Source: Yuukianura sp. NJ FZ-2021
Taxonomy: Eukaryota
Direction of reading: 5' to 3'
DNA: 64,000 bases
Assembly (NCBI GenBank): GCA_046563655.1
Contig: CM102287.1
Coordinates: 6,262,001-6,326,000 of the forward strand
Shown here: positions 2,788-57,000 of the stretch, in pieces
How the letters are laid out: every line of letters begins with the position of its first letter
How positions within the stretch are numbered: the stretch's first letter is position 1
The notes under the pieces: generated by a model
What the model was told of the DNA's origin: nothing
What the model saw: only the letters and a program-made list of their open reading frames with translations
The model's database searches: none
Position numbers and translations under genes: made by a program

Positions 2788-4369
2788 TTAGGATCTTGTT
2801 CCAACTCGGTTATTCGCTGCGACGTTTTCTATGAAATCGGCTGCTGCAGATTGGCTTCTTGTTGATTGAATTCTTTTGGAAATAGATTTCATTCGTTTCT
2901 CTAGCAGATCGTCACCCAATAGCTGCTCAATGCTGCTCAGCAATTCTTTCTCTGTAGCCTCGTAGGGATGTAGTCGTAATCCAAGACCAGTTTCGTGTAT
3001 GCGCTGGGCATTATCTAAAGTTTCAAAAAAATGTTCTTCTTTTTGTCATGCTAAAAGTCCTTTAGCTAAATAATTTGGAGTTTTTCATTTTCATTTGAAA
3101 ACTCGCCTAGTTGATCCCACAGATGCCCTAGAACTAGCATCCGTTTGCCAAAGTAAAATGATTCTGTCACAGTGTTGTTCCCCCCATGGGTAATCACAAG
3201 GTCAACCAATGGCAGTACTGTCGTCTGGGGAACGCTATTCTCTCCCCACATATTGTCAGCCAGTTCAAGTTCATCCCCCAGGGGTCCTAAAATGTATTCA
3301 AAGTTATCAAAATCAATTATAATTTGATTTTATGAAATTTTAAGATACCTTTTGACACAATGAATCTGTTTGGTGATTTGGCAAGTATTTTGATGAGTCT
3401 CTTCATGAGGTCAATGTCTGCTGATCCAATTGTACCCATGGAAAAGTACACAAGTTTCCCGTGACCTGTCTTCAGTTTCTCCGGTATTTCAAAACTTCCT
3501 TCAGTATTTCTTATGAAGGTGTCGAAGCGATACCAATTCGGTGGATTTGGACGTAAGTAGGTGTAATCCAATTCGAGTGGGTACATGTATAAGTTTCCCC
3601 AGGGGGAAGGTTTGACAAACCTAGGAAAGTTGCATTCAATTTCGGGCCCACCATTTTCAATACTCCAGTTTGAGACCTCCTGTGTATAATTGTAAAAAAC
3701 CTTGTTGACAACATTGTCGTAAATTTGCCAAAGGCTTCGATCGCTGTCTTCTGCATATCCAGAACACGGTGGAGGGACGTTGACCCTGGAAATACCAACG
3801 GGGTTGTAGGAAACGCAAAGCATCCATGGAGTTCCTATCAAGACCAGGTTAGCTTATACATTGTATTATTTAATTGAAAGTAACTAATTAGTAAATTATT
3901 TTCGATTTTTAAATTAACTTATATATTTACCACTATCCATTAACGCTGGTACATGAATAACTTGATCAACGATGACAAAGTCCGGTTTTACTTTTGCCAT
4001 GATTTCTTTGAGCCTTCGATGTTGATTTTTTGTTTTGTTAAAACTTTCTATCCAAAGTTCAAGATACAACTTTGCATAACGTTCAATTGGCGGTAGTTGA
4101 GCTGCAGCACTGGATTTAGCCACAATTTGTACAAACTTATCACCTTCATTTTGTTTTTGTATTGCTTCATTTTTTTCTTCCTGTGATTCTGGAGCGTCCA
4201 GCAATTCTTCAATGAAACCTAGTGGTTCCAGTTTGCCTTTCCAACTCATGTGTGTGGCAAATACGATTTTGTGTTGCCTATTTCGTAATTGTTCGGCTAA
4301 TCCTATGCATGCATTCATGTGTCCTGTGGCGTCAAGAGGAGCAAACAGAAACGTGTAATGGTCTGCCAT
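2788..4369 (-). CDS. UDP-glycosyltransferase copy 2; exons 4369-3931, 3834-3349, 3286-3107, 3014-2788
   Basis: Same motifs and intron positions as copy 1; intron 3 has a GC donor (G|gcgagt); ends AANNRVGTRS*. Confidence 0.92.
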
Positions 4370-8012: not shown

Positions 8013-8187
8013 AATCTCTCATCCCATGCTCACTCGTTCGACAGAAGAGAATCGTAGCTCGACGTTGGCAAATCGTGCAACAAATGATGAATTCGGAAAA
8101 CCAATCTAACGTCCGTATTTAGTCAAAAATGAGAAGCAAGGGGGTATAAAACCGGAGTCTTTAATTTCCAAAAGTCATACAGAAGCC

Positions 8188-9757
8188 ATGGAGCCACTCA
8201 GCACTCACTGTACAGCCACAGCGGCGGAATCGCTGAACATTTTAGCGGATTTTGCAATTGGCTTGTCAGTCTGTGCTGTTTTGGCTATCTGGTTTCACCT
8301 GATTTTCAGATACAGCTCTGCAATAATAAACAAAGTACTTGATCTCATTACAGTTTCATTCGAGGTCACAGGGGGCATGAACCTTTGTGGAGATCTTTAC
8401 GGGTATACCCTGGAATGGCTGTACGAAAATGTCGAAGACTGGAAACACTGCAGTATTAATGCTGACACTAACACTGATGAACACGGAAAAGTGACCACGG
8501 TGCTTCAGAAACCACCGGGATTTCAAAAGACTCCGCATTACTTCAAGTTCAACGGCGCCTGGATTCGTGTTCAGCGCAGGCGCTTGGGTGAAGTTGGAAT
8601 TATTAAGGACGAGACTCCAATTGAATCTGTGACTTTTCGAACTCTGTTCTGTCATGCCTCAGTTCTCGAGGTCATTCTGGACCAAATCCATTCCAAGTTT
8701 GAGGACGAAGAGCCCAACAAAACACTCACCAAGTACTACTACGCACGCGCAGGTAACAGATGTCGCTGGGAAGAAATGGAAAATGCCAAGAGGAAACGAC
8801 CGTTAAATTCGGTAATACTTGACGAAACTACGTTTGCGCGATTTGTGGATGATGTCAAGGAATTTCGTAACAGCGAAGACTGGTATCGTGATCGTGGAAT
8901 TCCCTATCGTCGTGGCTACTTGCTTTTTGGACCTCCAGGTATTTTCACAATTATTAAGAAAAAAAAATGTTCTTTTTTTTAAATATTTGAAAATCTGCGC
9001 TGAGATAGATGGGAAGGGAATCGCTCATCTAATCGATAATCTGTTACAGGAAACGGAAAGTCGTCTTTCGTGAAGGCTATTGCCGGAGAATTTAGGTAAT
9101 TTTTTTTTCGGTTTTTTAAACTTTCGTTTTTCGAAATTTTGATTTTGCAATATTTTATTCTATAGTTACAATATTTGCATTCTCTCGCTGACGTGCAAGG
9201 AACTGAACGATGACAGTTTGAACAGTTTGATGAACAGTACACCAGAGAATAGTATAATTTTGCTTGAGGATATCGACGCAGCATTTCCTAGTCGCGATAC
9301 GGCTATGAACGAAGACGACAGCGACAAAAAGTTCAAGATAAACTTGAGGTCGCCAAAAGGAGAGGTCAGCTCAGGAAAGGTGACGTTGCGCGGACTTCTT
9401 AATGCCATGGACGGAGTAGCTTCAACAGAAGGACGCATCATATTTCTCACAACCAATTATGTGGAAAGACTTGACCCAGCTATGACACGTCCAGGACGTG
9501 TGGACATGAAGGTTGCTATTGCACTTCCAACGGAGAATCAAATCGAAAGAATGTTTGTTCGGTTCTATCCGGAAGCTTCAGAGTGCAATAGAACCGAATT
9601 TGTCAAAGCGATTCTTGGACTCAGTCAACCCGTGAGCATGGCCATGATTCAGTGTCTGTTTATGCTTCATAAACGAAGTCCACCCGAGGTCATGACCTGT
9701 GCTGCTGCATCCTACTTTGAAGAACAGTTCTTTTCTCTTGTACCAAATATTAGCTAA
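8188..9757 (+). CDS. BCS1: BCS1-like mitochondrial AAA ATPase; exons 8188-8938, 9050-9095, 9166-9757
   Basis: [25 protein letters not shown] Walker A across intron 1, IILLEDID Walker B, TTNYVERLDPAMTRPGRVD SRH, N-terminal hydrophobic segment; TATA-like tataaaa ~40 bp upstream. Confidence 0.9.
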
Positions 9758-18807: not shown

Positions 18808-21035
18808 ATGAAGCTCTCAATTCCATTGCTTGTTGCTGTCTTCGTCTTTGCAGAAGGAAATACGGATTTTGAAGGGTAAATTGTGAATGTGATTATTACA
18901 AAAAAAATATCAGTTTAGAAAAAAAAGACGAGTAAAGACAGTATGAAGTTTATTCGCTGCTTTCTATATTTCTGAAGGTCACAAGTCCTTAGTATAACAA
19001 TCTCCACGCAGAAGCAACTTGAATTGCTCAAGCAGCTTGGTCAAGATGCTAACCTTGATTTCTGGACCTCTCCAAAATTGCATGGCGTCGCCGACGTTAT
19101 GGTCAGTTCGTCCCAAAAGGAGTACTTGACTGCATTGTTTTCTAGAGCAGGAATCAAGTGGAACGTCAAAATCAACAATGTCAAAAGGTAACCTTGAATT
19201 ACCCATGATAAAATTTATTGCTTAGAAAGTGTGCTAACAAAACGTGGTAACAAAAACACTTGAAAATGTCATTCCTATCTTGATTCTTAACAGCATTGTT
19301 GAACAGCAGAAGAGGATTAATGATAGAGCAATCATGAAATCTGAAGATCAAATGTCATGGACAGCCTACCATCGCTATGATACGGTAATTCCAACTTTTT
19401 AAATTTTGATTATTATTTTCCAATTTCGAATACTGATAAAAATTTGTCAGATAATCGCTTGGCTGGACAGCATTGCGTCAAATGATCTCGTGACATTGAC
19501 CGTGATTGGAAAAACTGTTGAGGGCCGTGATATTCATCAAGTCAAGATCTCGACGGGGCTGGATTCAAACGGACAGGTCAAACCAGTTGTATTCATTGAT
19601 GCTAATTTTCATGCTCGTGAATGGGTCACACACGCTGCTACTACTTGGATCATCAATGAAATAGTTTCAAATTCTGACAACTACGATGACATTCTGTCTC
19701 GGTTTGACCTGGTCATTGTTCCTTTGGCAAATCCTGATGGATACGAATTTACACATGAAACTGATAGACTTTGGAGAAAGAATCGAAGCATCAATCCAAA
19801 CACCACTTGTGTTGGAACTGATCTCAACAGAAATTTTGACTACTACTTTGGTACTTTCAGCGCAAAGAATACTGCAGTCTACTTCAAAAAATTAACGCAA
19901 CTTTATCTTGCTCAATACAGGAGGTGAAAATTCGTCCGACGATCCTTGCAACATTTTTCACAGTAAAAAAATCACCACAAAAATTTTTATTATTCCAATA
20001 CAATTTTTGGGGGCAATTTTTCTTTACTGATGGTTTAAATTTTTATATAGAGGGTCCCGAACCATTTTCAGAATTGGAATCTAGAGCAGTTCGAGACGCC
20101 ATTACGAATCTTCAAACTGAAACTGTTGTACACGCTTACTACACAATACATTCGTACGGTCAGGTGCGATAGCATACTGAATTATTATATTTTCACCTAT
20201 TAAAAGAATATACCAAACGTATCGTATGCAAAAGTGCGTTTATATACATACACGTAAATGTTCAATATTTTACCAATGAATCAATTAATATACTGTATAT
20301 TTGCGTACTCAATGTATTATTCTTGAATTGATTTTTAATCTCAGGTTTTCCTTCTATCATGGGGACACAGCTATGGAGCTTACCCCGAGGACTATTCGGA
20401 ACTTGTAATCATAACATTCATTTTCTCAACCTACGTCAATTACTTACTAAATCTGACCATTTCGTATTTCAATGTTTTAGTTGACATGGGGCATAAATAG
20501 TGTCGCAGCTATTACAGACGTTCATCAAGCTCTTTACACTACAGGACAAGGCGCAGAAATTCTATGTTAGTGAAGAACTGGAGTATTACATTTAAAATGC
20601 ATTATCAAAGAAAGTAGTTTAGTTTTTTAAACCAAATGTTTAACTATTTGAAAGATCCAATGGGAGGATGCAGCTATGATTGGGCGAAGGCGCAAGGCGT
20701 AAAGTACACTACAACTATAGAAGTGAGAGATACAGGGGACTACGGTAAGCTCCTTCAATACCGATTATGGTGACATTGCGAGCGGTTTTTTTAGTCATAT
20801 TTGAGTGTATAACAAAAATCGAGCTATTAACTAACTTTTACTATTTGTGTATTATTTAGGTTTCCTGCTACCAGCAGAACAAATAATTCCTACTGCAGAA
20901 GGTAAATTACAGAAAAATTGCTAATGTTTATCATGTTTGTTGTGAATGTTTTGATTGAAAACGGAGTATTTCTTACTTTACATAGAAATTTGGGCTGGTA
21001 TTCAAGTCATTGCAAGCACCACTCCATCGCGTTAA
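18808..21035 (+). CDS. Zinc carboxypeptidase, M14A (CPA/CPB-like), multi-exon with signal and pro-peptide
   Basis: MKLSIPLLVAVFVFA signal; HAREW, WRKNR, DLNRNF, HSYGQ, IEVRDTG motifs across GT-AG-bounded exons. Confidence 0.92.
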
Positions 21036-28656: not shown

Positions 28657-31271
28657 TCAACTTTCAAATTTGTCAAAAATTTCACGCAAAACGTTCGTAT
28701 GGATAACCAGTTGCGAAAACGTTGGTCGCAATTTTTCGTCTAGGCTCCAGCATTCCTCCATGATTTCATACCTAATGTATATAAACATGTTTAAATATGT
28801 TATATAAGTTTTTATACATTAATTTTAAATGTAAATATTAAAAGAAAGTTACATTTGAGAAGGACAGTAAGGTGGACGCGGAAGTCGACTTCCTCCGAGT
28901 ATTGCCGAAATGTATTCAACACCGTACTCGTATTTTGGCCACGGTTTGTCCCCAAGTGAAAAAATTTCCCACAAAGTTACTCCATAAGTCCAAACATCCG
29001 TTTTTTGCGAAAATGTCAAGTTTCGCATAGTTTCTGGAGCCATGTATCGCCAGGGCAGGGCTGTCTGTGTCAAGATGTAAGAACTTACGTTCAAATAATG
29101 GAAACTTGGAAATATTGGTTATAGTTTCCTTTAGCGCGGTAAATTTTACCTCCTCGTCCTTAGCATAAAGAGCGTAGTTGTGTAGTGTTCGGGCAGAAGC
29201 GAAATCTGTAATTTTGGCGGTTCGGTTCACTGTCAACAAAATATTTCGCAACGCCAGGTCACCGTGACAGACTTTCTTCTGAGCCAAGAACTCCATCCCA
29301 AGTCCAACTTCGTAGCTCCATCTCACAAGATTCTTTGTCGTAATTGTCTCTTCTGCGCCCATGATGCGTTTCATATACTCTTCTGATTTGCGCATGTACC
29401 GACATCTATAGCTGCTCTCGATTTCCTTGAAGCATCCCTTGTTAGCCCGCAAATAGCTTTCCAGCGACCCCTTCTCACACAGTTCCATTACAATCCAAAG
29501 ATTTTCTAGGGATGAGGAATTTTTTCAATGAGGTAAATCAAATTTTCAAAAATTCAAAAGAAATTGAAAATTTAAACTTACGATTTGCAATTTCGGTTGT
29601 ACAGACTCCTTCCAAGTTGACAATGTTTGGATGATTTCCGATGTAGCACATCACTTTAACTTCGTCCAGAACAGCCTTGAAGTATTCGTCGTCGTAATTC
29701 AATTCACAGGAGCGTATCGTTTTCACCGCCACGGCGCACGGTTTTTCGTCATGTCGTTGCAACTGGCCCCGAAAAACCGTTCCGAATTGTCCAAATCCCA
29801 GAACCTTAGTTTCGTCTATTAGAAACACCAAAAAATGCGATCCGTTATTGGCCGATGGTCTAGTTCAATGTTGTTTAAATCGAAATTTTGTTTATTTTTC
29901 CTTAAGAGGTTACGCCATAGCTCCTTTTTATTTTATTTTTTTCAAATTCTTTGAACCGCGCATTCGACGCGGCTCCGTTGCATTGGCAAATCGAAATCAA
30001 AACTATGACTCAGCAACATGAAAATTTAAAAAATTCAAACGATTGTTGTGAAAATCGACAAAATTCGTCCACAAGTTTTTTTTTTTAGAATTCGGACTTA
30101 TGGCATAACCTGCTACGGCATTTGTCCAAACGGCCTCTACAGCAACCTTGGTCTAGGTCAAAAACACAAATGGGAATGATTTTTTCAAAAAATTTGAAAA
30201 AAAAAATTGTTCTACAAACCAATTGTAAATTGTGACTGCTCCAGTTCAAATTCTTTTTTGAAGGAACAGAAAACTGCTTCATGTCGTAACGGCGTCTTCA
30301 GTGGCCCGAACGTGTCGTTTATGATATACTGCCCCTCCACGATATTGTTGACCCAGTTCTTCAAATTTTCAACATTTGCTTTCAAAGTTGTATCTCCTTT
30401 CGACATTTTTTCATTTTCAATTTGGAGAGCAGCACTGACAGCTATTGATGATAACATGGAGAAGCCTTTGTAGAAATCTTCGAGTTCTGCTTCAGTGAGT
30501 CTACCCGGAGAGTTTCTCTGTTTCTTTTCTTTGAGCTTGACCTCTTCTATGACAATTGTCATAAAGTTGAGTATGACCCAGACAGAATATGGTTTGTAGA
30601 TGAGGTGGTAGCAGACACCAATCACAACTGAGAATGTGATAGTGTAGGTTAACCGAAGAAAGGAAATGTCAATTAGGAACAAAATGTAGGCTTGCAGAAC
30701 AAAAAACGTCGCCAGGAAATACACTTTGCAGTAGACGAGATTTCTCTGAAGAATTAGGAAAAGTGAAATAAATTTAAGAATCCAGACTTGCTTTCCTTTG
30801 AAAATAAAAAACTGCATTACGTTTTCATGGAAAAATTAACGATCAAGAATTTAAAAGTTGGACTCACTTGACCTACGGCTCTGAAGAGAAAAAAAGAAAC
30901 GACAAAGTCAACCACATCTTTCAAATACAACAGAATCCATGTGAGATAGTGGAATGCAACTACAGCTGGAATTCCATCGCTGCGCTCCAATTCTGCAGTG
31001 CCCTCTCTCGTCACATTGGAAGCTTTTTCAGGTGGAAATCCTTCTTGCGTTAACACATCCTTTGTAACCACGAAAGTGCACAAAATAGAATCAATCTACC
31101 AAGATAAACAGAAAAAAAAACTGGTTACGACCAATGCGAAATGTACGACTACTGATTGAGTTTTGCTAAAGAAAAGCCTACCATGTTGACTACAGCGACA
31201 ACTCGTGCACAACCCTCAACACTAATGTTGACACAAGGAAGTCCAGGCGGATTCCAGCGTTTAATTATCAT
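28657..31271 (-). CDS. Multi-TM (about 4 helices) tyrosine kinase, PVR/FGFR-like catalytic domain, copy 1
   Basis: GFGQFG, VAVK, HPNIVNLEG, HGDLALRNILL, DFA (in place of DFG), LPWRYMAPE, DVWTYG, CW..RPTF; hydrophobic N-terminal exons splice in frame to the kinase. Confidence 0.87.
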
Positions 31272-31654
31272 GTTCACAACGATCGAATTTGAATTTCAAA
31301 ATTGTAAAATTTCGAACTGATTCACTATGTATAATTTCTGCGGTTCGTTTTTGTTTTGTTCTGTAGGTACACATAAGAAACACAAATGCGATTTTTATTT
31401 GTAAATAATATTAACTTCCAGTTTGGAAACAAAACAGGATTGGGGAGTTCCAGGAACAGTTTTTTTCTGGATTTAAAATGTACATAAAATGTACACCTTA
31501 GTATTTCTTTCGCCATGCATACTGAAGTCAAGACATTTATTTTATAGTGAGTTAATTAGCGTGTTTCAACAAAAACTTGTTTTCGTTTTTCGTGGAAAGT
31601 CTCCTTCCTCATGGATTTTCCAGTTAACAAAAACGGAGATACGGCATTATATTA

Positions 31655-31700
31655 AACTAGAATAACTGCGTTGCCTATCGGCAACGCAGTTAGTCTAGAG
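31655..31700 (-). mobile_element. Possible Helitron-type 3' terminus
   Basis: Stem-loop aactgcgttgcc-tatc-ggcaacgcagtt flanked by CTAG; on the minus strand the CTAG is followed by T. Confidence 0.4.
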
Positions 31701-32068
31701 TGTGGCGAATGTACCAGTTTGACAGAATAATCGTAGTATATCGCAGTCTTTAAAACAAATAGGAGAAAAACCAAAACTTGAGTACAATGAGCCCGCATCC
31801 GGGTTACTTCAACCCGTGTTTTGGTGTTCGTGCAGTGAGAGTTAACTCCTGTGCTGGATAACCTTGAGTTCAAAGCGAGAGTTAACTCTCACTTTCCTTC
31901 CTTTAGTAGCCACGATGACTCTTGCACAATGCTGCAATATGTAGTAGATTATTAAAGTAATATTTATGTCATATTCTGTCAAAAGAGATAATAAATATTC
32001 ATATAAAAAACATAGATATGTAATAACAATTAGGTGGCAAGGTCTACATTTCGCGAAAACGGAAAAAA

Positions 32069-34400
32069 TTATGAGTTTTCAAGTTTGTCAAAAATTTCAC
32101 GGAGGACTTTTGTATGAAAAACCAGTTGAGAAAATGTTGGTCGCAAATTTTCATCCAAGTTCCAGCACCCTTCCATGACGGCATACCTAATGTACGACAA
32201 TTAAAAACATATATAATAAATGTGTATTATAAATATTTATAATAGTATTAATATGGATTTACATCTGAGGAGGACACTTAGTTGGACGTGGAAGCCGACT
32301 TCCGCCAAGTATGGCCGAAATGAAGTCAACACCGTACTCGTAGTTCGACCACGGTGTGTCACCGAGTGAAAAGATTTCCCACAACGTTACTCCATAAGTC
32401 CATACATCCGTTTGCTGCGAAAATGTCAAGTTTCGCAGACTTTCGGGCGCCATGTATCGCCAAGGCAGGGCCGTCTGAGCCAATTAAATAACGAGATTTT
32501 CAAATTTTGAAAAGAATTTAGTTTAATTTTTACTACCTCTTCGTCCCTGGCATAGAGTGCATAGTTGTAGAGTTTCCGTGCTAAGCCGAAATCTGAAATT
32601 TTGGCGGTTCGATTCCCAGTTAGCAAAATGTTGCGCAGAGCGAGGTCACCGTGACACACTTTCTTTTGAACCAAAAACTCCATCCCGAGTCCAACCTCGT
32701 GACTCCATCTGACCAAGTTCTGGGTCGTAATCGTCTCTTCTGCGCGAGTAATGTGTTTCATGTACTCTGCTGATTTGCGCATGCGCCGACATTTATAACT
32801 GCTCTGGATTTCCTTGAAACCGTTCTTGTTATTCCGCAAGTAGTTTTCCAGTGAGCCCTTCTCACACATTTCCATTACAATCCAAAGATTTCCTATGAAG
32901 GAAAATTTCAATTCAATTTAAAAAAGTTAAAACTATGTAAGGTAAACTCACGATTTGCAATGTCGGATGTACACACTCCCTCCAAGTTGACAATGTTCGG
33001 GTGACTACCAATGTAGCACATTACTTTGACTTCATCAAGCAGAGCCTTGAAATATTCGTCGTCAAAATCGTCACTGGCACGCGCTGTTTTCACGGCCACG
33101 GCGTGCGGTTTTCCGTCATTTCGTCTCAACTCACCCCAATAAACAGATCCGAATTGCCCAGATCCCAGAATCTTAGTTTCGTCTGTTAAAATACGAAAAA
33201 AATGCAATCTAATTATTGACCGACGTAGTTCAAAAAATCAACTCAAAATTGTTTTTCTAAAATTCGAAAAAAAGTGTTCTGCGAACCAATTGTAAATTCT
33301 GACTGGTCGAGCTCAAATTCCGTTTTGAACGAACAGAAAACTGCTTCATGTGACGGCATCTTCAGCGGCACGAACATGTCATTTCTGATATACTGCGACC
33401 TTGGCCCTTCCACGATATTGTTGACCCCGTGCTCCAAAGTTTCGAAATTTTGTTCCAAGGTTTCATGTTCTTTCAAGCTTTTTTCATTTTGAATTTGGAG
33501 GGAAGGACTGATTACTATTGATGACAACATGGAGGAACCTTTGTAGAAATCTTCGAGTTCTGCTTCTGTGAGTCTGCGCGTTGAGTGTCTCTGTTTGTTT
33601 TCTCTGACCTTGACCTCTTCTATGACAATTTTCATAAAGTTGAGTATGACCCAGACAGAATATGGTTTGTAGAATGCGTGGAAGCAGAAACCAATCACAA
33701 CTGAGACTGTAATAGTGTAGGTCAGCCGAAGGAGGCAAATGTCAATTAAGTACACAGTGTAGGCTTGCAGAACAAGAAACGTCGAAAAGAAGTACAGTTT
33801 ACAGTACACGAGATTTCTCTGAAAAAATATGAAAACTTAAATGAAACGAGTCCAAACTGGCTTTTCCTGCTTTTCCGTGTCAATGCAATATTACCGCTTG
33901 TTACTCTACCGGTACTTTAACATTTTGTGTTTTGAAGAAAAATTTATAAATGCGAATTCGACAAAATTCAAAAGATGAACTTACTTGACGTACGGCTTTG
34001 AAAAGAAAAAGAGAAACGACAAAGTCAACCAAATCCTTCAAGTACAACAGAGTCCACGTGAGATAGTGGAATGCAATTGTCGCTGAAATTCCAGCGCTGC
34101 GCTGAAGTTCTGCAGCGCCATCTCCAGTCAAATTTTGCGGATTGAGCGTTTCTTCGAGAGGAAATCCTTCTTGTGTTACTATATCTTTTGTAACCATCAA
34201 GGCGCACATAATACATCCGATCTAATCATAACAGAGATGTGTACATTTTCTGCAGGTATTACATAAAAGTATATTTAGTTTGAAAAATTGGAGAAAGATA
34301 TTTTAAGTACCATGTTGATAACTGCAACAACTCTTATAGAACCCTCGACAGTAACGTTGACACAAGGGAGTCCAGGTAGCTTCCAGTGTTTAATCAACAT
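32069..34400 (-). CDS. Multi-TM tyrosine kinase, copy 2 (tandem paralog)
   Basis: Same exon structure as copy 1; GSGQFG, VAVK, HGDLALRN, canonical DFGLAR, LPWRYMAPE. Confidence 0.88.
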
Positions 34401-35096
34401 CTTTACTGTTCTGGATTTTGAATTTCAAAATTGTTCTGTTTTGAGTTGAAAAGTTTTGGATTGACTGAAACATGTAATGTATGTGGTTCGTTTTTGTTTT
34501 GGCTTTTGGTATTAACTCTGTTGACATTCTGGTCAAAATTTAAGTACTTTTTTCGTCTCTTGCAATGTTTTTCAAGTTTGAAAACAAAACTGGATTGGAG
34601 GATTCTTGGAACAGTTTTTCCTCATTATAAAATGTGCATCCAGTATTTTCCAGATCAGCGTACTATATGCTCTATACGTATTAGTATTTATCTTATTATA
34701 TGAGGATTGGTGAGTTTGAGTTTCTGGCAAAAACTTGTTTTCATTTTTCATAAAAACTGACGAAATCCGTTCCTTTTCCTGTCAACAAGAACAAAGGCGG
34801 TTGAGTTTCGAACTGAGTAATTAAATTCATTATTTTATGTTTTATTTTTAATATGTAAACATTTGAAATGGTCACAGCAGAACACGAACTAAGACTCAAT
34901 AATATATTTTATTTCATTTTTATAGTTGTTAGGAAATCCAAAAGTTTGTTATTGGAAGGTCTACGCTTGTGGCTAAACGTAATGTTTGTGCTCACTAACT
35001 TTAATGTTAATGCTGATATTAAGTACAGTATAGCTCAAGAAAAAGGAGTCAAAAATATTAAGTTTCAGGCAGTGCAGGGTGCCTGGAAGCAATCTT

Positions 35097-36658
35097 TTAT
35101 GTTGAATTCCAATGTCTCTTTCTTGATGTTCTTCTTGCCTCCATCGAAATATTTAACCTGTTCGAAAACATTTATTTTGAAATTGAAAGGCCAAGGATTC
35201 AAAATTTATGTAAATTTTAACAACAATTCATACCTTTCTTCCTCTCCTTCCAAGAGTTTTTTATACGTTGCAATTTCGTTGTCAAGTGCCACTTTAGTCT
35301 CCATCAAATCCTGGTAGTCGTTGATTACTTGCGTCTTTTCTGCTTGAAGCACACCTAGTTGATCTTGCAGATTTTTGGCGCATGCGCTGGCAGCTTCTGC
35401 TTCAGCCTTCATCATGTCTTCCAAACTTTTGATTTGGTTAGACAAAAAGTCTTTTTCCTTTTCTAGTAAAATTACACGGGCCTTTGTAGTTTGTAAAGAT
35501 TTTTCTATAGTTTGGATTTCATTTGTTTTTGATTTAAGAGTTGCCGCCATTTGGTCTTTCTGTTTCATCAAATCCGCTTCTTTCAATTTAAACAAATTCT
35601 CTTGTTCTGTTTTGTTACTTGCAATTTGCTTTTCACACTCCAACCGCAAAGATTTGATAACTTTTTGAACGTTGGTTTCATAGTCTTTGCCCAACTTTTC
35701 ACCAACTTCTTCAATTTTCTTTTGATTAAAAGTGCGCAAAGCGACTACTTCCTGTTGATGCATTTCCAATTTGGACTGCAGTTCGGTTGTTTTGGACTTC
35801 AGTTGATTTGTCAATTCTGCATTCTGGATTGTGACGGTTTCCAAATTCTTTTTTAGTTTTGCCGATTCGTCTCCGAGTTTCTTAAGTTCGGATTCCAGCG
35901 ATTTGTTCTTGGCTGTGAGATGCGAATTTTCAGATTTCTGTTTCTCGAGTTCTCCAGTTTTGGCGATGGCGTCATCTCTGTGTTTTTTTGATTCTTTCTG
36001 GAGATCAGAAATTTCTGTTTTGTTTTGCTGCAATCTGAAAAATTAATTTTTTAGGACCTAAGAAATCATTCCGTTTGGCAGAGATTTAATGAGGAAATTT
36101 TTTACTTTAGGTTTGCTTCGGTCAATTGTTTCTTCGCCTCTTGGAATTGCAAATTCAGACTTGATTTTTCATTTTGGCAATCCAAAAGCTGCTTTCGAAT
36201 GTCCGTGTTTTCTTTTCCCAGAGACTCATGGATTGTTTTTGTGGTGACTTTCAAAGTTTCCTCAGCAGATTCAACCTTAGGTGGAATTTTTGTTAAGATT
36301 CCAATTTTATCAATCTACTTTTTTAAGTTTTGAGATTTGTTTTTACTTGAACCGAGAGTTGTGAATTTTCAAGCTCGAGTTGATGGTTACGTTCGATGAT
36401 GGCGGCAAGTCTGTTGTTCAAGGCAATCAGCGTGTTTTTTTCGTCCAGTCTTGACAGGCGAGTGGCCTTTGCAAGCTCTGTGCGAGCATCACAAATTTCC
36501 GAATTTACTAATTTCCTTAATTTCACATTTTTAAAAAATTTGGAAACTGAGATTTGAGTGGTACCTCCATTGGGTGAGGATTGTACTGGGGAGGGCGTTG
36601 TCGGTGCTGGGGAAGACGTCGGTGTTTCCTGTTTCTGACTTCGGGATCTCGTCGCCAT
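35097..36658 (-). CDS. Lamin-derived intermediate filament protein lacking Ig-fold tail and CaaX
   Basis: Coil 1A LNNRLAAII and rod-end ALDNEIATYKKLLEGEEERL motifs; last exon RLNISMEARRTSRKRHWNST*. Confidence 0.88.
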
Positions 36659-39072
36659 GACTGACTCCAAAACACTCCGAAAGACTCTGCTTAAAAACGA
36701 CAGTTCAAAACAAAAACTGAACTTACGGTTTTGTTCAAACGGGTTTCCGCTTTGTTCAAATATTTTGTTCCCTCTGAGGTTGTAGATTTGGAAATGGGTC
36801 GGATGAAGCTGAAAGTGGGACAGAGTCAGATGAGTGCTAACGAGACACCCACACACACCAGAGTCTATATTGGGAAATGAGCATAGAAAGATATTTTTGT
36901 ACAAGAACATAATGGCCAATAGCAAAAACGGCCGATTTACCAGGGCCCTTACAAAGGATACTTATAACAGGGTAAGGGGCACTTGTAAAGCGGCGCTTAC
37001 AAAAGAAGTTAATAACCGCCAACGGTAAAAGCGATAAAGGTTGAAAAAAAACTGTAAAACCTGTAAAGAAGCTTTTGTATTTCTGGATTTTAAAGGATTA
37101 GAGGTTTTTTGAGTGCTTCTAAAATTTTGAGTCTAAAATTCACCAGGTTTCCATTTGTCTTGAGTAGTAATGTGTTTGGATTCTCTCATTTCTCTTAGTA
37201 TTTGAGTCTCATTCTAATCTAATTAAGTTAGATAACGTTAGCTTAACTTAATCAATGTGTTTTACATCATTTTGTACGTTTATGTATAACTGAACGTAAC
37301 CTTGGTATGCGTGAGAAATATTATATAAGAATTATTTTCATTCCATCAAATTACGCTAAGCGCGAAGTCGTAGTCAACAGTAGTTTTGTTTAATGCAACT
37401 TTGATCATTACTGGAGACGAAAAATTTTGTGAGGCTTTATGATTGGCGTGTTTTGGATTAGCGTTTGTTGTTTTGAGATTGAACATTAAAACCTTGCGGA
37501 GGGCCTTGAAAAAAGTTGGCAAATCGATTCTCTGCACAAGGAAAGTACATTTTTTTGCAGACCAAAACAGGAACTGACATTGAAATTCTACACAAGAGTA
37601 GCCGTGCAGGTAAAGCGCTTCCATCTAATTAATGCTTTAAAGCCTCTTACCTGAAGATAACAAAAAAAATTCAATTTTGAGTGTTGTTTACATTTATAAC
37701 AGAAAAAACGCTTGGTTCAAACACTCAAAATAATCTCAAGTGACCAAATACTTAATGAAATAAATGATGAAAGCTGGCGACGTGATGGATAAAAAATAAT
37801 TCATAACGTTCAACGAAACTTTGCCAATGAACATTATGCACCGACTTACTAAAAATTAATTCGTGTGAAATTTTATTTACATCAATAATCTTTTTGAAAG
37901 TTGAATTTCTTTGTTCAGTCACTGTGCGGATGATGGAGATGATGATTGGGACAGCATGCTGCTCGCATCTCTCTCGTCAACGTTTTCAGGTGGCACAGTC
38001 CGTCGTCAGTCAAATAACACGTAGCTACAAATAAATTGCAAAACACGTTCACAAAAACTTACAAAAAAAAAAAAAAACTAAAGAAGTGTAATTTCAATAG
38101 TTTCATTATAATAATTTCAATGTGCTTTGTCGCTTGTTTTTAAAGCAAATCGATCTAAAAACGGCTTGCAGCCAAGAATGAACTGAACTGAACTGTAACT
38201 GTAATACTGATTGAGGTATGCGTAACAAAAGTTTAATTACCGTCGACGCTGTAGTTCTGGTGAAGCGAACTCGCAAGCAAAAGAAAGAAAAGCAAGATGA
38301 AAAGTTTCCTCATTTTAATAACTAGATACTACAAAATTTAACCTAAAACTAAAACGCTGTTTCAACAAAGTTCAAGAAAGGTTTACACAATAATTGTGTT
38401 TGAATTATTCTAACTTTTTGTACAGAGACTAATTCAATGCAGGCAAGAAATTGAAGTTTGCTACCACAATCAAATCGAATACTGCTTAATTACTTTTTAC
38501 ACTTTGTGGTTAACAACTATGCGGCAAACTCTTTTCATAGATAAATACATGACTTAAGTGACTGAACATTGGTAAAGCCTATATTTATAATCTGATTATT
38601 TTACAGTAATTGGAATTTTTACCTTAAGGAAAATCGTGTTAAGAAAAGATAGACGTTACACGCGTCTACTAACAAATTGTATGTTGACTGGGCCATTGCT
38701 ATGATTTAATTGTTTCATACAATTTTAGTAATAATTCTCCTGTATAATATCAAAAATTGACTGAATTTAAATTCATGACACTAAACCTGAATTAAAAAAA
38801 ATAAAAAACCGTCCTTGAACTAAAACCAAATTTAAAAGTGGGAGTGTTCATGTAAGTTAACTTTGTTTGACAAAAATTCGGCACGCCAAACTGGTTATTT
38901 TGACAAACGAAAATCCTTCAAGGTAGCTACAACAAAAAAAAAACTCTATAAAAGCGTAACTTTTGTTCACATTTGAACTTTAAAACGCAAAATTCAAGAA
39001 TTAGTTTCCTAGCTCTGACGGGCTCTGACGAAGGTTGAAAAGAAGAAGAGTGAAAATAAAGTTTAGCACAAG

Positions 39073-47838: not shown

Positions 47839-49961
47839 TTATACTGCATTAATCGAAGTATTTCTAAGATGTGTGTCAATGACGATCTGCGTATGTGGAT
47901 CTATGAGGGGGTATGGGAACCGGATGCCTGAGGGGTAAATGGGTTCGGGTTGCTGGAATCGTGGGGTAACACTAACGTTGTCTGCAGTCGATGGAGTCAA
48001 GTACTCTGGCTGTCCAGCATGCACCCACCAAGCACCTTCTTCTTCACCTTCGCCAGTTTCGGAATCACCAACCTTCGATTCTGATGCGACATCTTCGGTT
48101 TCTTGTGTTGATCCAAGAGTCACTGGAGGTTGCCCATTGGTAAGAACCGTATCTGGGCGGGGCTGGTTAAGCCTGGATACGAACACTGGGGCATTGGAAT
48201 CCGATGGTGACGATTCTACGACATCCGGAACAGCGAAAATACCTGAGAAGTAAACGCTTGCTGAAGTGGGATCCCGAATTTCAAAATAAAATGAGCGATT
48301 GGCTATGAATTCTTCAGCGATGAAGCCACTTAGCGGGACAACGAAGACTCCAGTGGCACTTCCAGCTTTGGTTCCATTTTCACCCACTTCAATAACACTT
48401 TTGGAAATAATTTCGTCTACACGTAGCGGCTTCTTGGAAATTTTGCTCAAATTGGATGTCGATTTCGTTAGAGACGTAAGTCCAAGCTATCAAATGTACA
48501 AATACGAATGCTCATTTTGAGAAATGCTATAAATATGTTGAATAACCTTTAAATCCTAACCTTCTCCAGGGCACTGGTGACCTTGATTTGTGTTTCAATC
48601 TTGAACTTTGGAATGGTGACTTCACTTTCGGACAATTTGAAAGAAATTGCACTGGAATTGTACGTTTGAAGACGCTTGAGAAGAGTTGGCAATCCATCGA
48701 ACTTGTTTGGAAGATAAATCCGCAAAACTTTGGTGTAAGACTGTGAGAACAGCAAAGTAGGATTTAGATTTTTGAATAAGATTTTTGACTTTTTCTAAAA
48801 TGATCTATGAAACTGATTTTCTTAGTAGGTTGCCGCAATGAAGAAACTGATTGCAAACCTTATAAGGAAGTTCCAGAACAGTTGCATCAAGGTCGTTGAC
48901 GTTTGCAATGTAGTTGCTGCTCTTCTGGTACATCATTGGAATTTCCTGGACACTTCCGTCCAATAGTGTGAACGGAATATTTCTGAATGTTATTTGGAAC
49001 GCATGCTCCCAAGGTGCCTAAAACAAAAGATTTTAAATGAAAACTTAAATACTTGACTAACTTTAACTGTTTAGTTGTGTGGACTTTTAGATTTACGTCG
49101 AAGTGCACTGCGTTGATGATGACCATGTCAGTGTCCTTGCGCAGAGACGTGGGACCTATGAGGTCTTGGATGAGGCCGTTTGTGGCATTCTTGATAAAGT
49201 CATTGATGGCTTCGTAGTCTCTAAAGTCAAACTGGTCACGCAAGATCACTTTTGACTTGTTCAGTGCTTCCTTAAACTCTGGCAGAAGAACGAGGTCCAC
49301 AGCGGTGAAGACGACGGTCAAGCTTGAAATGTCGGCAGCAGGCTGAAACAACCAAAAGATTTTTTTGCAATATGAACCCCGAAACTTCTCCTCGCTTTTC
49401 GTTTGAAATTCTAGATTTTTGAAAAATTCAAAGCCTTTTCACCTTTGGATCATCCACTGCTCGCTGATTCTCAAATTCTTTGAGGTATGAGTCCAATTCA
49501 CGATAAGTTTGACTGTCAGCCCCAAGTTTCAGTGGCACAAGAGCGGAATTAACAGAGAAGGGTGAAATTACTTTGTTTCCATCCAATGTTAAGAAGATCT
49601 GAAAACGAAAATTTTCACTTTTCCAATCATGCAACTTAAATTTTTAGAACATCGCTTCGGGCGACTTTCTCAAAATATACGAAACTAAGTTTTCGTTTAC
49701 TAACGGATTCCAGTGTTTCTGTGCTGGATTCAACGAATGTTGCATTCGCCGCTGCGTCTGGAGCGTCTTTTGCCGCAGCACTCACGAACATAAGAATACC
49801 TTGAAGAAAATCGTCAATATAGCGCTTTATTTACCAATTTCAAAAAAAAATCCGAAATTTTGAATACCGAATGTAGATTTGAATAATAAGTGTGAATGAC
49901 ACTTTTGTTTTGTTTGTAGCTTACACACGAAGCCGGGCGGCAGGGTCTTGCGATTGAACAT
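47839..49961 (-). CDS. Serpin with long C-terminal extension
   Basis: ISPFSV, INDFIKNATNGLI, IINAVHF, IPKFKIE, hinge EVGENGTKAGSAT, FIANRSFYFEIRD; start codon inferred from splice phase. Confidence 0.88.
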
Positions 49962-54090: not shown

Positions 54091-57000
54091 ATGGATAATT
54101 CGGCCATTCCGATAGTCGAAGCTGAAGTAGAAGATGAATTTGAAGACAACGATGACCATGGCGCTATCGATTCAGATCCCGGTGATACTTGTGATGATAA
54201 TATCCTTTCATTATTTTCCAATGCCTCCGGTCCCTCGGCCTCGGTTCCGGTAATTTTGGCTTCTAAACTAAAGATTGTGAATAGAATTTGTGTTGATGCA
54301 GACATTAAAAATGATTACAGGAGGAGAAAAGTGGAGCTACGACACCCAGATCAGTGAGATCCATTACTGAAAATACGACCAGTCACGCTCTAGATCTCAG
54401 TTTTCCGGAGATCTTAGACCAACTCGAACAAGCAGTGGATGAAGCAGACCGCCGTAGAGGAAACAACAGTGTAGACCGCTCACATAACAAAGTGGACTTG
54501 GCAGACCTAATAAGCATGATGGTATGTAAGTTATAGGTTAGCAGAAGTTAGAAGGAAGGTTTAATTTATTTTCAATTGACGATATTCTTTTAGGAAAAGG
54601 AACCGACTGCGCCGTTAGAAGTTTTGGACTTAATGGAGGCTTATGAAAAAGACATCTCGGCACAGAAGTCTCAAATTACAAAGTTACAATGTGAAAAGTC
54701 CAAGTTATCAATACAATTGGAGGAGAGCAGGGTAAGGATTTGATTTAAATTACGAAAATTATGCGACAATTCTCAGGGCGAATAGGCTTCTACTTCATCG
54801 TTGAAGCTACTGGGATAGTCATTACTACCAACTGGAAAGTCTTTTGCTGAGATCACTCCATGGCCTCCTAGGGATGGTATTCTGGAAGGGAGTCTGATTG
54901 GATTGATTGGCAGCTTTTGTTGAAGACCTGGGCGACGTCCTTTCTGTTGCTCTCCAAGAGTTGCTGCAAGGGCTCTTACAGCATTGAACGTTTCTTCTCC
55001 AGTTGGGATGATTTGGTTCGCTGGAAGTGCAAAACCATACCTTCCAGTGTCCCGAAGTTCAAACGTATATGCATACTTGATTCCAGCACCACCTATGAAT
55101 TGGTCCAGCATTACTTTCTAGATCTAATATTGTCGAGGTTAAAAAGTATGGACTTACCCTTGGCCCAATCATCCGAACCTGGAAAAATTGAAATCGGTTA
55201 ACTTTTGTTTGATTCCGCAGCTTCTTATTATTTCGAGTTTCTTACCACCAGCGGCAGAGTAGAGCAAATCTGGAGCTGTTCCTAGCTGATACCTCGTTCC
55301 ATATGTGGCTTCAAGGGCTTGTTTTCCTTTGGCAGCGACTGACATTAGTTCACTGTAATCGCTTGGTTTCTCTTTACCGTAACCCCATGGAACGAGCATA
55401 AGTTGTGAATAGGAGTGGAACGTTAGATACATCAAGATGTGGTCACGTCTAGCCAAAATTGCATTGGAAACTGATGATGTCTCAGGTTCAGAAAAGGCTC
55501 GCGGTCCTCTGTAGATTTCACTGCATGGGTCATTCGATGTTCCTTTAGGTTGGCAGTAAATGCGTGATTAGTTAGTTGTTTAGTTGTAGGTTAGGAATGT
55601 AATTAGTATTCGTTAAGTTTACCGGCTCCACCCCATTTGTATCCCCAGTTTCGGTTAGGATCGACACCGCGACAGCCCAAGAACGAAGTCGTTCGGCTTC
55701 GTGTCTTTCTCCAGAATCTGTCCTTAGTATGCGAGTACTCATAGCCATCAACATTTATAACTGGCACAAAGTACCTGTTTGAGAAACAATTTAAGTGAGT
55801 GGCCATTTTAATTAATGATTAACTCAAAATTCAGTTACCAGTCAAAATCTTTGAGCATTTGTCGGCTTTTTTCCTCGTCTGTGACCAGTTTGTTGAGAAT
55901 GTACAGTGCAGTTGCTGGAGAAATCCATTCACGGGCATGCATTCCACCATCTATCCAGATAGCCGGTTTCTTTTCTCCACCACTGGACAGTTTTACAAGA
56001 ACGATGTCACGACCTTCCCCAGTTTTTCCTATTGTTTCCATTGACACAGTGGCTCCGGTCGCCGTTCGCCTTCCTAAGTTAGCTAGATACTGGCAGTACT
56101 CCTGGATAACTATGAAAACACAAATTTGAATTATATTATTTCAGATACTGCGTACTCAACACACGTCGTACACTTACCATTGTATCTCTGGTAATTGCTC
56201 CAGTTCATTCGGTGACCTGTAGCTAGCTGTCGTCCAGTCTCGGGAGCCACTTCAACTGGTACATTCTCTTCTTGAATCAACTGGTCAATGTCATCGTGGA
56301 CGATGTCATGCTCCACGCCGAGTTCCTCCAGAAGACTTTTTACATGGGGGTACAAGTTTGGAGAGGCGAGGATGTCTGTTGTCTGATGTGTTTTTGGAAA
56401 CGTCCAGAAATGAACTCCATGTTTGCCATCAAGGCTGAGCATAAGGGCTTCTGCCAAATCGGGTTGATCTAGGGCAGAAGTCCTCAGTAGTTTATAGCCA
56501 GAGTAGGACTTCTTAGTATTGGGCTCATCTGGTCCCGTTGGAATGGCGTCTATTTGAGACAGGGATCCAAGTAGAACAAATGTCGCTACAAGTATGGACA
56601 ATATCCTGGATAGTGTTGACATTCTGCTGATGAATTTGTTTTTACGTTAAGAGAATTGTTTGCCAACAGGCATACGCAATTGCCAAGGTTTTATACAATT
56701 TCAATTTTTCGGCAATTATGGTTTCTGGCAACTGCGGTTGTAAATACTTTCGGATTCCCGAAATTATTGTTTGCTGTAATTTGGGGAAAACTGTTCTGAT
56801 GAATTTGCTTGTGCAGCGAATTCTTTTTATTTCAATCGTCAAAACCTAAGTTAAGCGTGCGAAGTAGCTTTGCAGAAAATTCTCGCCCCCTTGTGTAGTG
56901 ATGACCTCCGTCCTCCTGATAGATCTTGGCACATTTTCGACCTATTCATGGAAATTAGAACTTGTGGATTTTCAACCTCGGATCACTTTTCGTTTTGATT

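Follow-up and report, generated by a model that had tools for sequence, protein, structure and literature searches.

Receptor tyrosine kinases (RTKs) are taught as single-pass membrane proteins that are activated when a ligand brings their ectodomains together. In a 64,000-nucleotide (nt) stretch of the genome of Yuukianura sp. NJ FZ-2021 (assembly GCA_046563655.1, contig CM102287.1, positions 6,262,001 to 6,326,000 of the forward strand; this whole stretch is called the window below), two tandem minus-strand genes, A and B, are predicted to encode proteins in which an RTK-type kinase domain is preceded by a strongly hydrophobic N-terminal part of ~174-177 amino acids (aa). Together with a third homolog, C, located on a metagenome contig, they most likely represent a multi-helix membrane tyrosine kinase that is real, selected and lineage-restricted. 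More specifically, we consider it probable, with considerable room for doubt, that A, B and C are real selected genes in which a kinase of the PDGFR/VEGFR/PVR class is mounted on a lineage-restricted module of ~175 aa comprising 4-6 helices. The weakest points of this interpretation are the exon joins, which are predicted, and the number and topology of the helices, which rest on hydropathy. If the interpretation is true, a PVR/VEGFR kinase cassette can be driven from another kind of membrane module, and the published fusions of polytopic membrane domains with tyrosine kinases (TKs) extend from choanoflagellates and sponges to a bilaterian. With their ~590 aa, the proteins would then also be a small tractable system in which to study the control of a tyrosine kinase by a bundle of helices.

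Reading frame from the hydrophobic module into the kinase

The models of genes A and B were built from the sequence read-out and then checked by script, the exon joins being predicted. Frames are open through all seven exons of each gene, all 12 introns are of the GT..AG type (59-404 nt), and the two proteins are 75.2% identical (439/584 aligned residues). The interval singled out by the initial annotation ends exactly at the final base of the A stop codon (28657) and at the A of the B initiation codon (34400). No copies beyond A and B were found within the 64-kb window by tblastn.

The proposal that a multi-helix hydrophobic region is read in frame into an RTK-type kinase in both paralogs is borne out by these open seven-exon models and, above all, by the structure of exon 3. 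In A and B, the last three of six hydrophobic segments (H1-H6), the juxtamembrane motif LTEAELEDFYKG and the juxtamembrane residues that follow lie in one uninterrupted exon, which is followed by the exon of the kinase N-lobe; the intron between the two is in phase 1 and occupies the same place in A, B and C. The first Met of exon 3 falls inside H6, and therefore H4 and H5 can be translated only from an upstream start. Exons 1 and 2 supply such a start through phase-0 introns; exon 2, where H2-H3 of gene A reads FHYLTW...LKD.VDFVVS, has a phase-0 intron on either side.

The third homolog was reached by two routes. An exhaustive profile search with exon 3 of A and B gave one match among 1,835,955,588 proteins, P0001, which is a 151-aa fragment of the homolog's own gene with intron read-through at its end. 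A kinase-exon search gave P0002, a fragment that is 59% identical. Both trace to a single 5947-nt metagenome contig, L001, which was also recovered by a metagenome scan with P0002. Other searches with exon 3 produced no further relatives: a metagenome scan with the exon-3 alignment gave 179 pattern matches, none of them confirmed; a word-indexed protein search with exon 3 of A (among ‘longer’ proteins) gave 1371 candidates, none at E<=0.001; and an Atlas search with the same exon (recognition 1457, short of the 2300 mark) returned only unnamed clusters and DUF2254 at a share of 14%. Homolog C shares with A and B the seven-exon structure with identical intron positions and phases, and all six of its introns are GT..AG. 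Thus, the same architecture, which the initial annotation proposed to look for in other genomes, is found in a second species and is under purifying selection there. None of the 17 open reading frame (ORF) peptides that flank C on L001 match the window; the ORFs at L001 3050-5947 are up to 232 aa long and match neither a Pfam family nor the window, and synteny does not extend past the kinase gene.

Between the N-terminal domain of A or B and that of C, the proportion of nonsynonymous differences (pN) is 0.22-0.27 and that of synonymous differences (pS) is 0.79-0.82; the respective values for the kinase are 0.24 and 0.80-0.86, with pS saturated in both comparisons. In exon 1 of gene A, pN relative to C is 0.26 with pS saturated, and the ratio of nonsynonymous to synonymous divergence (dN/dS) relative to B is 0.35; exon 3 of gene A has pN of 0.21 and pS of 0.70 relative to C. 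For the H4-H5 part, pN is 0.15-0.21 and pS is 0.70-0.77, indicating purifying selection. At saturated synonymous sites, the N-domain thus has the same pN as the kinase, and 87 of its 175 positions do not vary among A, B and C. As judged from these substitution patterns, the membrane domain is coding, functional and under constraint at least equal to that on the kinase. Identity to C is 60.6-74.0% in the H2-H6 core and 61.5-64.3% in the kinase, and it is 43.5-47.3% in the juxtamembrane stretch and 32.3-41.9% in the hydrophilic loop between H1 and H2 (loop 1). The existence of the third homolog and the outcome of the selection test also mean that the hydrophobic pattern is more than chance.

It is conceivable that exons 1-2 constitute a separate gene of a small membrane protein, or are not expressed with the kinase, and that the kinase transcript starts elsewhere. 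What gives this idea its footing is that the exon joins draw solely on splice consensus and comparative conservation. It has to contend, however, with the fact that H4-H6 share an exon with the juxtamembrane stretch and that the reading frame is open on the acceptor side of this exon, the first Met of which lies within H6 while H4-H5 are under purifying selection. In addition, all six introns have kept their order, positions and phases in two species whose synonymous sites are saturated. Furthermore, the introns between exons 2 and 3 are short (122, 166 and 70 nt in A, B and C, respectively) and nothing like a stop codon or a polyadenylation break is present between these exons. We therefore regard an artefact of the gene models as very improbable.

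The kinase itself is well recognizable. Three kinase exon pieces of A were tested, and each matches PF07714 (50.7, 80.6 and 71.8 bits at a cut-off of 23.1; E from 2e-13 to 1.5e-22). B and C carry GxGxFG, VA[VI]K, the αC Glu, HxDLxxRN (as HGDLALRN), DFG and APE, and a kinase insert is present. Gene A has DFASAR (29206-29189) where B and C read DFGLAR; judging from this substitution, the kinase of A may be weakly active, or A may serve B as a weakened or regulatory partner. The HGD that replaces HRD also occurs in the PVR/PDGFR-like rows of fly and sawfly and in the kinases of the springtail Orchesella and is therefore a family trait and no sign of inactivity. The best matches of exon 5 among solved structures (PDB) are EGFR, VEGFR1/2, PDGFRA, FLT3 and FGFR2, with E down to 2.6e-18. 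A tree of 22 rows places A, B and C among PVR/VEGFR-like kinases, in a starred clade of their own (100/99); measured by path length, Orchesella cincta and O. dallaii are the closest of the named rows, with the joining fork (91/93) drawn open. By sequence affinity, then, the kinase of A, B and C is VEGFR/PDGFR/PVR-like.

The synonymous divergence (dS) between A and B is 0.34 in the N-domain, about half of the 0.67 in the kinase part. The lower value suggests that the 5' halves of the two genes have undergone gene conversion or exchanged sequence more recently.

Hydrophobic segments, topology and possible mode of action

In gene A, six stretches reach 1.4-2.3 on the Kyte-Doolittle scale (windows of 19). 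By a second measure, a simple free-energy sum on a Hessa-type scale with a cut-off of 4.0, H1, H2, H4 and H5 pass in A, B and C alike, H6 does so in A alone, and H3 in no homolog. With the same script, the best window in the kinase parts of A, B and C is at 4.36-4.68, above the cut-off, and the single-pass relatives P0007 (from O. dallaii), P0029 and P0012 have one strong segment each before the kinase domain. Residues 72-173 (~100) form an almost unbroken hydrophobic region that is interrupted by charged turns of 1-12 residues. Upstream of it, H1 begins after ~23 residues and might serve as a signal anchor or remain in place as an uncleaved signal; it is followed by loop 1, which varies in length (31-50 residues) and contains an N-x-S/T sequon in each of A, B and C. 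Another such sequon, at N15, is likewise conserved in the three proteins. Several polar residues within the hydrophobic segments (H79, D93, Q124, D132, H153 and N166) are invariant, which suggests that the segments pack into a bundle whose polar core is functional and are not a mere anchor. The initial annotation had described ~150 aa with about four helices; the length falls short of that found here, while a count of four is compatible with data that allow from four to six.

The claimed absence of an immunoglobulin (Ig) ectodomain holds: no Pfam family, Ig domains included, was found in six N-terminal ORF pieces, and no conserved coding exon upstream of either initiation codon was detected in a comparison of A with B, which revealed only patchy nucleotide similarity. 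An in-frame stop lies 8 codons 5' of the gene A ATG. Upstream, gene A reaches no further than the stop codon of gene B, and an intermediate-filament gene limits gene B; between these neighbours, a large ectodomain could not be accommodated. As a separate observation, the ~330 nt 5' of both ATGs (31272-31600 and 34401-34730) share similar patches, e.g., 70 nt at 78.6%, that are without counterpart in L001; they are probably duplicated promoter sequence.

At E<=10, the exon 2 and exon 3 peptides of A, B and C (n = 6) gave only unrelated sub-threshold Pfam matches (Spot_14, HVO_2248, C4_MG1 and DUF5777). This result goes against the kinship with LAPTM/DUF4728 proteins that had been put forward at the outset. 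If such kinship existed, A and B would be tetraspan proteins of this type fused to a kinase, residing in endosomes or lysosomes and phosphorylating cargo or trafficking factors there. The only lead in this direction comes from an Atlas feature search, in which the H4-H6 part of B pointed to arthropod clusters with DUF4728 at scores of 0.87 (12% of members carry DUF4728) and 0.76 (47%). Both scores are below the lead threshold of 0.9, and the search is not calibrated for parts of proteins. Four helices with both ends cytosolic, as expected of a DUF4728/LAPTM tetraspan, would be compatible with the four strong segments, but the two weaker segments leave the match undecided; a four-helix arrangement of H1, H2, H4 and H5 with the N- and C-termini inside also fits the positive-inside count best. 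Set against this, none of the six exon peptides match PF15860 (DUF4728) or another consistent Pfam family at E<=10, and the exhaustive profile search with exon 3 yields no standalone relative. On balance, a tetraspan of this family seems decidedly unlikely.

The structure predictions by AlphaFold2 were made with single-exon peptides, each with a three-sequence alignment. The exon 2 peptide is modelled as a helix, a coil and a long helix (residues 35-78 are helical at a predicted local distance difference test score, pLDDT, of 72-78), and the exon 3 peptide as one uninterrupted helix (residues 2-77, pLDDT 81-94). These models bear on an alternative to a polytopic module, a single-pass RTK with a short ectodomain, in which H1 is a signal peptide or anchor in an unusual position, loop 1 is a tiny glycosylated ectodomain, and only one of H2-H6 spans the membrane while the others are interfacial or re-entrant. 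The rendering of H2+H3 and of H4+H5+H6 as continuous helices agrees with such an arrangement, as do the sequon in loop 1 of all three copies and the existence of relatives with short outer parts, such as P0007. The weakness or shortness of H3 and H6 and the fact that only four segments pass the threshold in B and C speak for it, too. However, the 62-residue hydrophobic run between residues 112 and 173 is too long for one span of 20-25 residues, and in each of A, B and C the segments H1, H2, H4 and H5 pass independently of one another. The core is, moreover, conserved like the kinase, and its buried polar residues do not vary, as is typical of polytopic domains with packed helices. A single-pass RTK is thus an unlikely explanation, if one to be kept in mind.

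Several observations nevertheless weigh against a polytopic module of 4-6 helices joined to an active kinase. H3 and H6 are short or weak, and the Hessa-type script picks just four segments in B and C. The single-exon AlphaFold2 models show no hairpins, so that they support helical character but not the count or orientation of the helices. The positive-inside rule singles out no one topology, and sequons are conserved both in the N-terminal tail and in loop 1, two parts that cannot both be luminal should H1 be a membrane span. As discussed above, the exon joins are predicted, gene A has DFA, and outside the window one homolog only, from one metagenome locus, is seen among 1.84 billion representative proteins. 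Finally, any activation mechanism is pure conjecture at this stage.

A number of topologies are compatible with the data, given that the kinase has to be cytosolic. Both a six-span reading and a four-span one (H1, H2, H4 and H5) would have cytosolic ends with loop 1 outside, a sensible place for its conserved sequon, and a five-span reading with the N-terminus outside would make use of the conserved N15 sequon instead. The Lys/Arg count on the A/B/C alignment favours four- or five-span readings, though not decisively. An even number of membrane spans would, if the N-terminus is cytosolic, place the kinase in the cytosol.

In the polytopic reading, the module would stand in for the signal peptide, the ligand-binding ectodomain and the single membrane helix of a conventional receptor. 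Since a sizeable ectodomain is lacking, it is probably events within the membrane, and not a soluble protein ligand, that switch the kinase. Candidate triggers are association of the helix bundle with itself or with other membrane proteins as partners, which might be A for B, or single-pass members of the same expanded family. A more ambitious version of the polytopic reading would hold that these are functional multi-pass RTKs of a bilaterian, independent of the seven-transmembrane (7TM) TKs of sponges and choanoflagellates, in which a novel bundle of 4-6 helices with a conserved polar core is grafted on a PVR-type cassette of transmembrane helix, juxtamembrane stretch and kinase and serves as a sensor (of a lipid, of some small hydrophobic ligand or of a membrane protein partner) that gates the kinase within the bilayer. 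We put this version forward tentatively, as an idea with somewhat less than an even chance of being right.

The segments were also compared with each other. H2-H3 (30937-30900, ..LTWILLYLKDVVD..) and H6 (30592-30542, ..SVWVILNFMTIVIEE..) have weak similarity, with a score of 25-28 against a shuffle mean of ~16; this score was matched by 3-11 of 500 shuffles across the three homologs, and the remaining five segment pairs are unremarkable. Given six comparisons, the signal is too weak for an internal duplication of helices to be accepted, and it is at most a hint of growth by helix duplication.

Feature coordinates and genomic surroundings

The coordinates of the features discussed are collected in the table.

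Table. Positions of genes A and B, their exons and hydrophobic segments in the window, with homolog C (positions on contig L001) and the neighbouring intermediate-filament exon
Feature	Position	Strand	Content	Pfam match
Gene A	31271-28657	minus	7 exons, 586 aa	
Gene A exon 1 (aa 1-30)	31182..31271	minus	start codon, sequon N15, first half of H1	
Gene A exon 2 (aa 31-106)	30868..31095	minus	end of H1, variable hydrophilic loop with N-x-T sequon, H2, H3	
Gene A exon 3 (aa 107-281)	30220..30745	minus	H4-H6 (to 30542), LTEAELEDFYKG (30499-30464), ~80 more residues; single open exon	
Gene A exon 4	29582..29815	minus	kinase N-lobe, G-loop LGFGQFG, VAVK	PF07714, E 2.1e-13
Gene A exon 5	29150..29505	minus	kinase insert, HGDLALRN catalytic loop, DFA replacing DFG	PF07714, E 1.5e-22
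Gene A exon 6	28853..29064	minus	end of activation segment PWRYMAPE, C-lobe	PF07714, E 7e-20
Gene A exon 7	28657..28771	minus	end of kinase domain, short tail, stop TGA 28659-28657	
H1	gene A residues 24-40			
H2	gene A residues 74-88			
H3	gene A residues 91-104			
H4	gene A residues 112-131			
H5	gene A residues 138-155			
H6	gene A residues 158-172			
Gene B	34400-32069	minus	7 exons, 591 aa	
Gene B exon 1 (aa 1-30)	34311..34400	minus		
Gene B exon 2 (aa 31-109)	33985..34221	minus	end of H1, loop, H2, H3	
Gene B exon 3	33287..33818	minus	H4-H6 (to 33615), LTEAELEDFYKG (33572-33537), remaining juxtamembrane stretch	
Gene B exon 4	32952..33182	minus	kinase N-lobe, LGSGQFG, VAVK	
Gene B exon 5	32537..32892	minus	kinase insert, HGDLALRN, DFGLAR intact	
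Gene B exon 6	32263..32474	minus	C-lobe	
Gene B exon 7	32069..32186	minus	stop TAA 32071-32069	
Homolog C (L001)	exons 759-860, 927-1211, 1282-1771, 1848-2081, 2169-2533, 2615-2832, 2929-3043		602 aa	
Intermediate-filament rod-domain exon (neighbour outside the system)	35206..36042	minus	rod domain	PF00038, E 2.3e-28

The window is AT-rich (GC content 0.33-0.45), its introns are short and of the GT..AG type, and its gene content is typical of an animal: an intermediate filament, M14 carboxypeptidase, serpin, RGS, TruD, a BCS1-like gene and C2H2 zinc fingers. In the intermediate-filament gene (35066-36961, minus strand), the rod exons are at 36323-36961 and 35206-36042, and after the last of them only a candidate tail exon of ~20 aa was seen, with no lamin-type tail. 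Cytoplasmic-type filament proteins are rare in arthropods; in a springtail host, this neighbour could be one. The BCS1-like AAA ATPase gene (8110-9757, plus strand) has BCS1_N, AAA and lid domains, and its best database identity is 39%, so it is likely, from the sequence, a divergent, fast-evolving paralog. M14 carboxypeptidase exons and a serpin gene are at 19403-19927 (plus), 56131-56646 (minus) and 47839-49438 (minus), with the carboxypeptidase at two places.

Relatives of the kinase and comparison with known systems

The nearest named relatives of the kinase are P0007 of O. dallaii and P0005 of O. cincta (annotated as ‘VEGFR2-like’), which have the HGD loop in common with A, B and C; identity of exon 5 to the springtail kinases is 40-41%. 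These matches suggest that the genes belong to an arthropod, probably a springtail-like one. A nematode KIN-16 identity, considered because of the short introns and the TTTCAG-like acceptors, was rejected, as there is no nematode among the 38 matches listed and the nearest named ones are springtail kinases. The initial annotation had spoken of a PVR-like juxtamembrane stretch and kinase. The kinase part of this description stands and the motif part is not borne out: a regular-expression search among 39 proteins found the juxtamembrane motif in two, P0001 (i.e., the L001 gene) and P0007, and not in the fly PVR/PDGFR-like or vertebrate VEGFR matches listed.

P0007 is a single-pass protein of 583 aa in which the corresponding motif, LSEKEIDEFMKG, is located ~17 residues past the membrane helix, a distance similar to the ~16 residues that separate LTEAELEDFYKG from H6 in A and B. 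It differs in having one strongly hydrophobic helix and a soluble N-terminal part of ~140 aa, whereas A and B have 4-6 hydrophobic segments and no soluble ectodomain. In a BLASTP comparison, the membrane helix and motif of P0007 align with the end of H6 and the motif of A and B, weakly (E 0.043). H6 and the juxtamembrane motif may be a remnant of an ancestral single-pass cassette of transmembrane helix, juxtamembrane stretch and kinase, to which the helices upstream of H6 would have been added by exon shuffling. The domain shuffling suggested in the initial annotation is plausible, given this weak alignment with a single-pass springtail relative and the phase-0 introns that flank exons 1 and 2.

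With the PDGFR/VEGFR/PVR class as a whole (vertebrate class III/V and insect Pvr), A and B share the kinase insert, the HGD that is also present in the fly and sawfly PVR/PDGFR-like proteins and, as does C, tyrosines in the activation segment. Unlike members of this class, A, B and C have a very short C-terminal tail. A canonical class III/V RTK has a cleavable signal peptide and an Ig ectodomain, whereas A and B are without Ig domains and probably without a signal peptide of the usual type; it has one membrane helix, whereas A, B and C have, by hydropathy only, several hydrophobic segments.

In a search of the literature on springtail (Collembola) RTK expansions, multi-pass tyrosine kinases and DUF4728, neither this architecture nor an expansion of RTKs in springtails was found to be described. 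A survey of the holozoan tyrosine kinome classes receptor kinases by their transmembrane and extracellular domains, and polytopic forms are not mentioned in the available part of its text (PMC8662651).

The proteins of the KIN-16 family are single-pass with short ectodomains. This family (kin-15, kin-16, old-1 and flor-1) consists, according to the available part of the source, of C. elegans-specific, tandemly clustered, PVR/FGFR-like membrane kinases and includes the kinase/pseudokinase pair OLD-1/FLOR-1 (PMC10523662). As far as this partial account goes, A and B resemble it by description, in being lineage-specific tandem membrane kinases. By analogy, the OLD-1/FLOR-1 pair is a possible parallel for B, with DFG, and A, with DFA.

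The closest parallel in architecture comes from choanoflagellates and sponges, in which G-protein-coupled receptor-tyrosine kinases (GPCR-TKs) with a 7TM domain and a C-terminal tyrosine kinase are described; in the part of the report available, they are functionally uncharacterised, are thought to have arisen repeatedly by fusion, and are reported among metazoans in sponges only (PMC12716839). The statement that metazoan RTKs are single-pass, on which the initial annotation relied, needs qualifying for these sponge fusions (PMC12716839). As far as these proteins are described in that part, they have seven helices, whereas A, B and C have no more than six hydrophobic segments and match none of the 7TM families of Pfam at E<=10; their hosts are choanoflagellates and sponges, whereas A and B belong to an arthropod-like bilaterian and their kinase is among PVR/VEGFR-like ones. 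What is common to both is a polytopic membrane domain directly joined to a C-terminal tyrosine-kinase domain. On this partial account of the GPCR-TKs, A, B and C are not members of that group, yet they follow the same principle of a polytopic domain combined with a tyrosine kinase.

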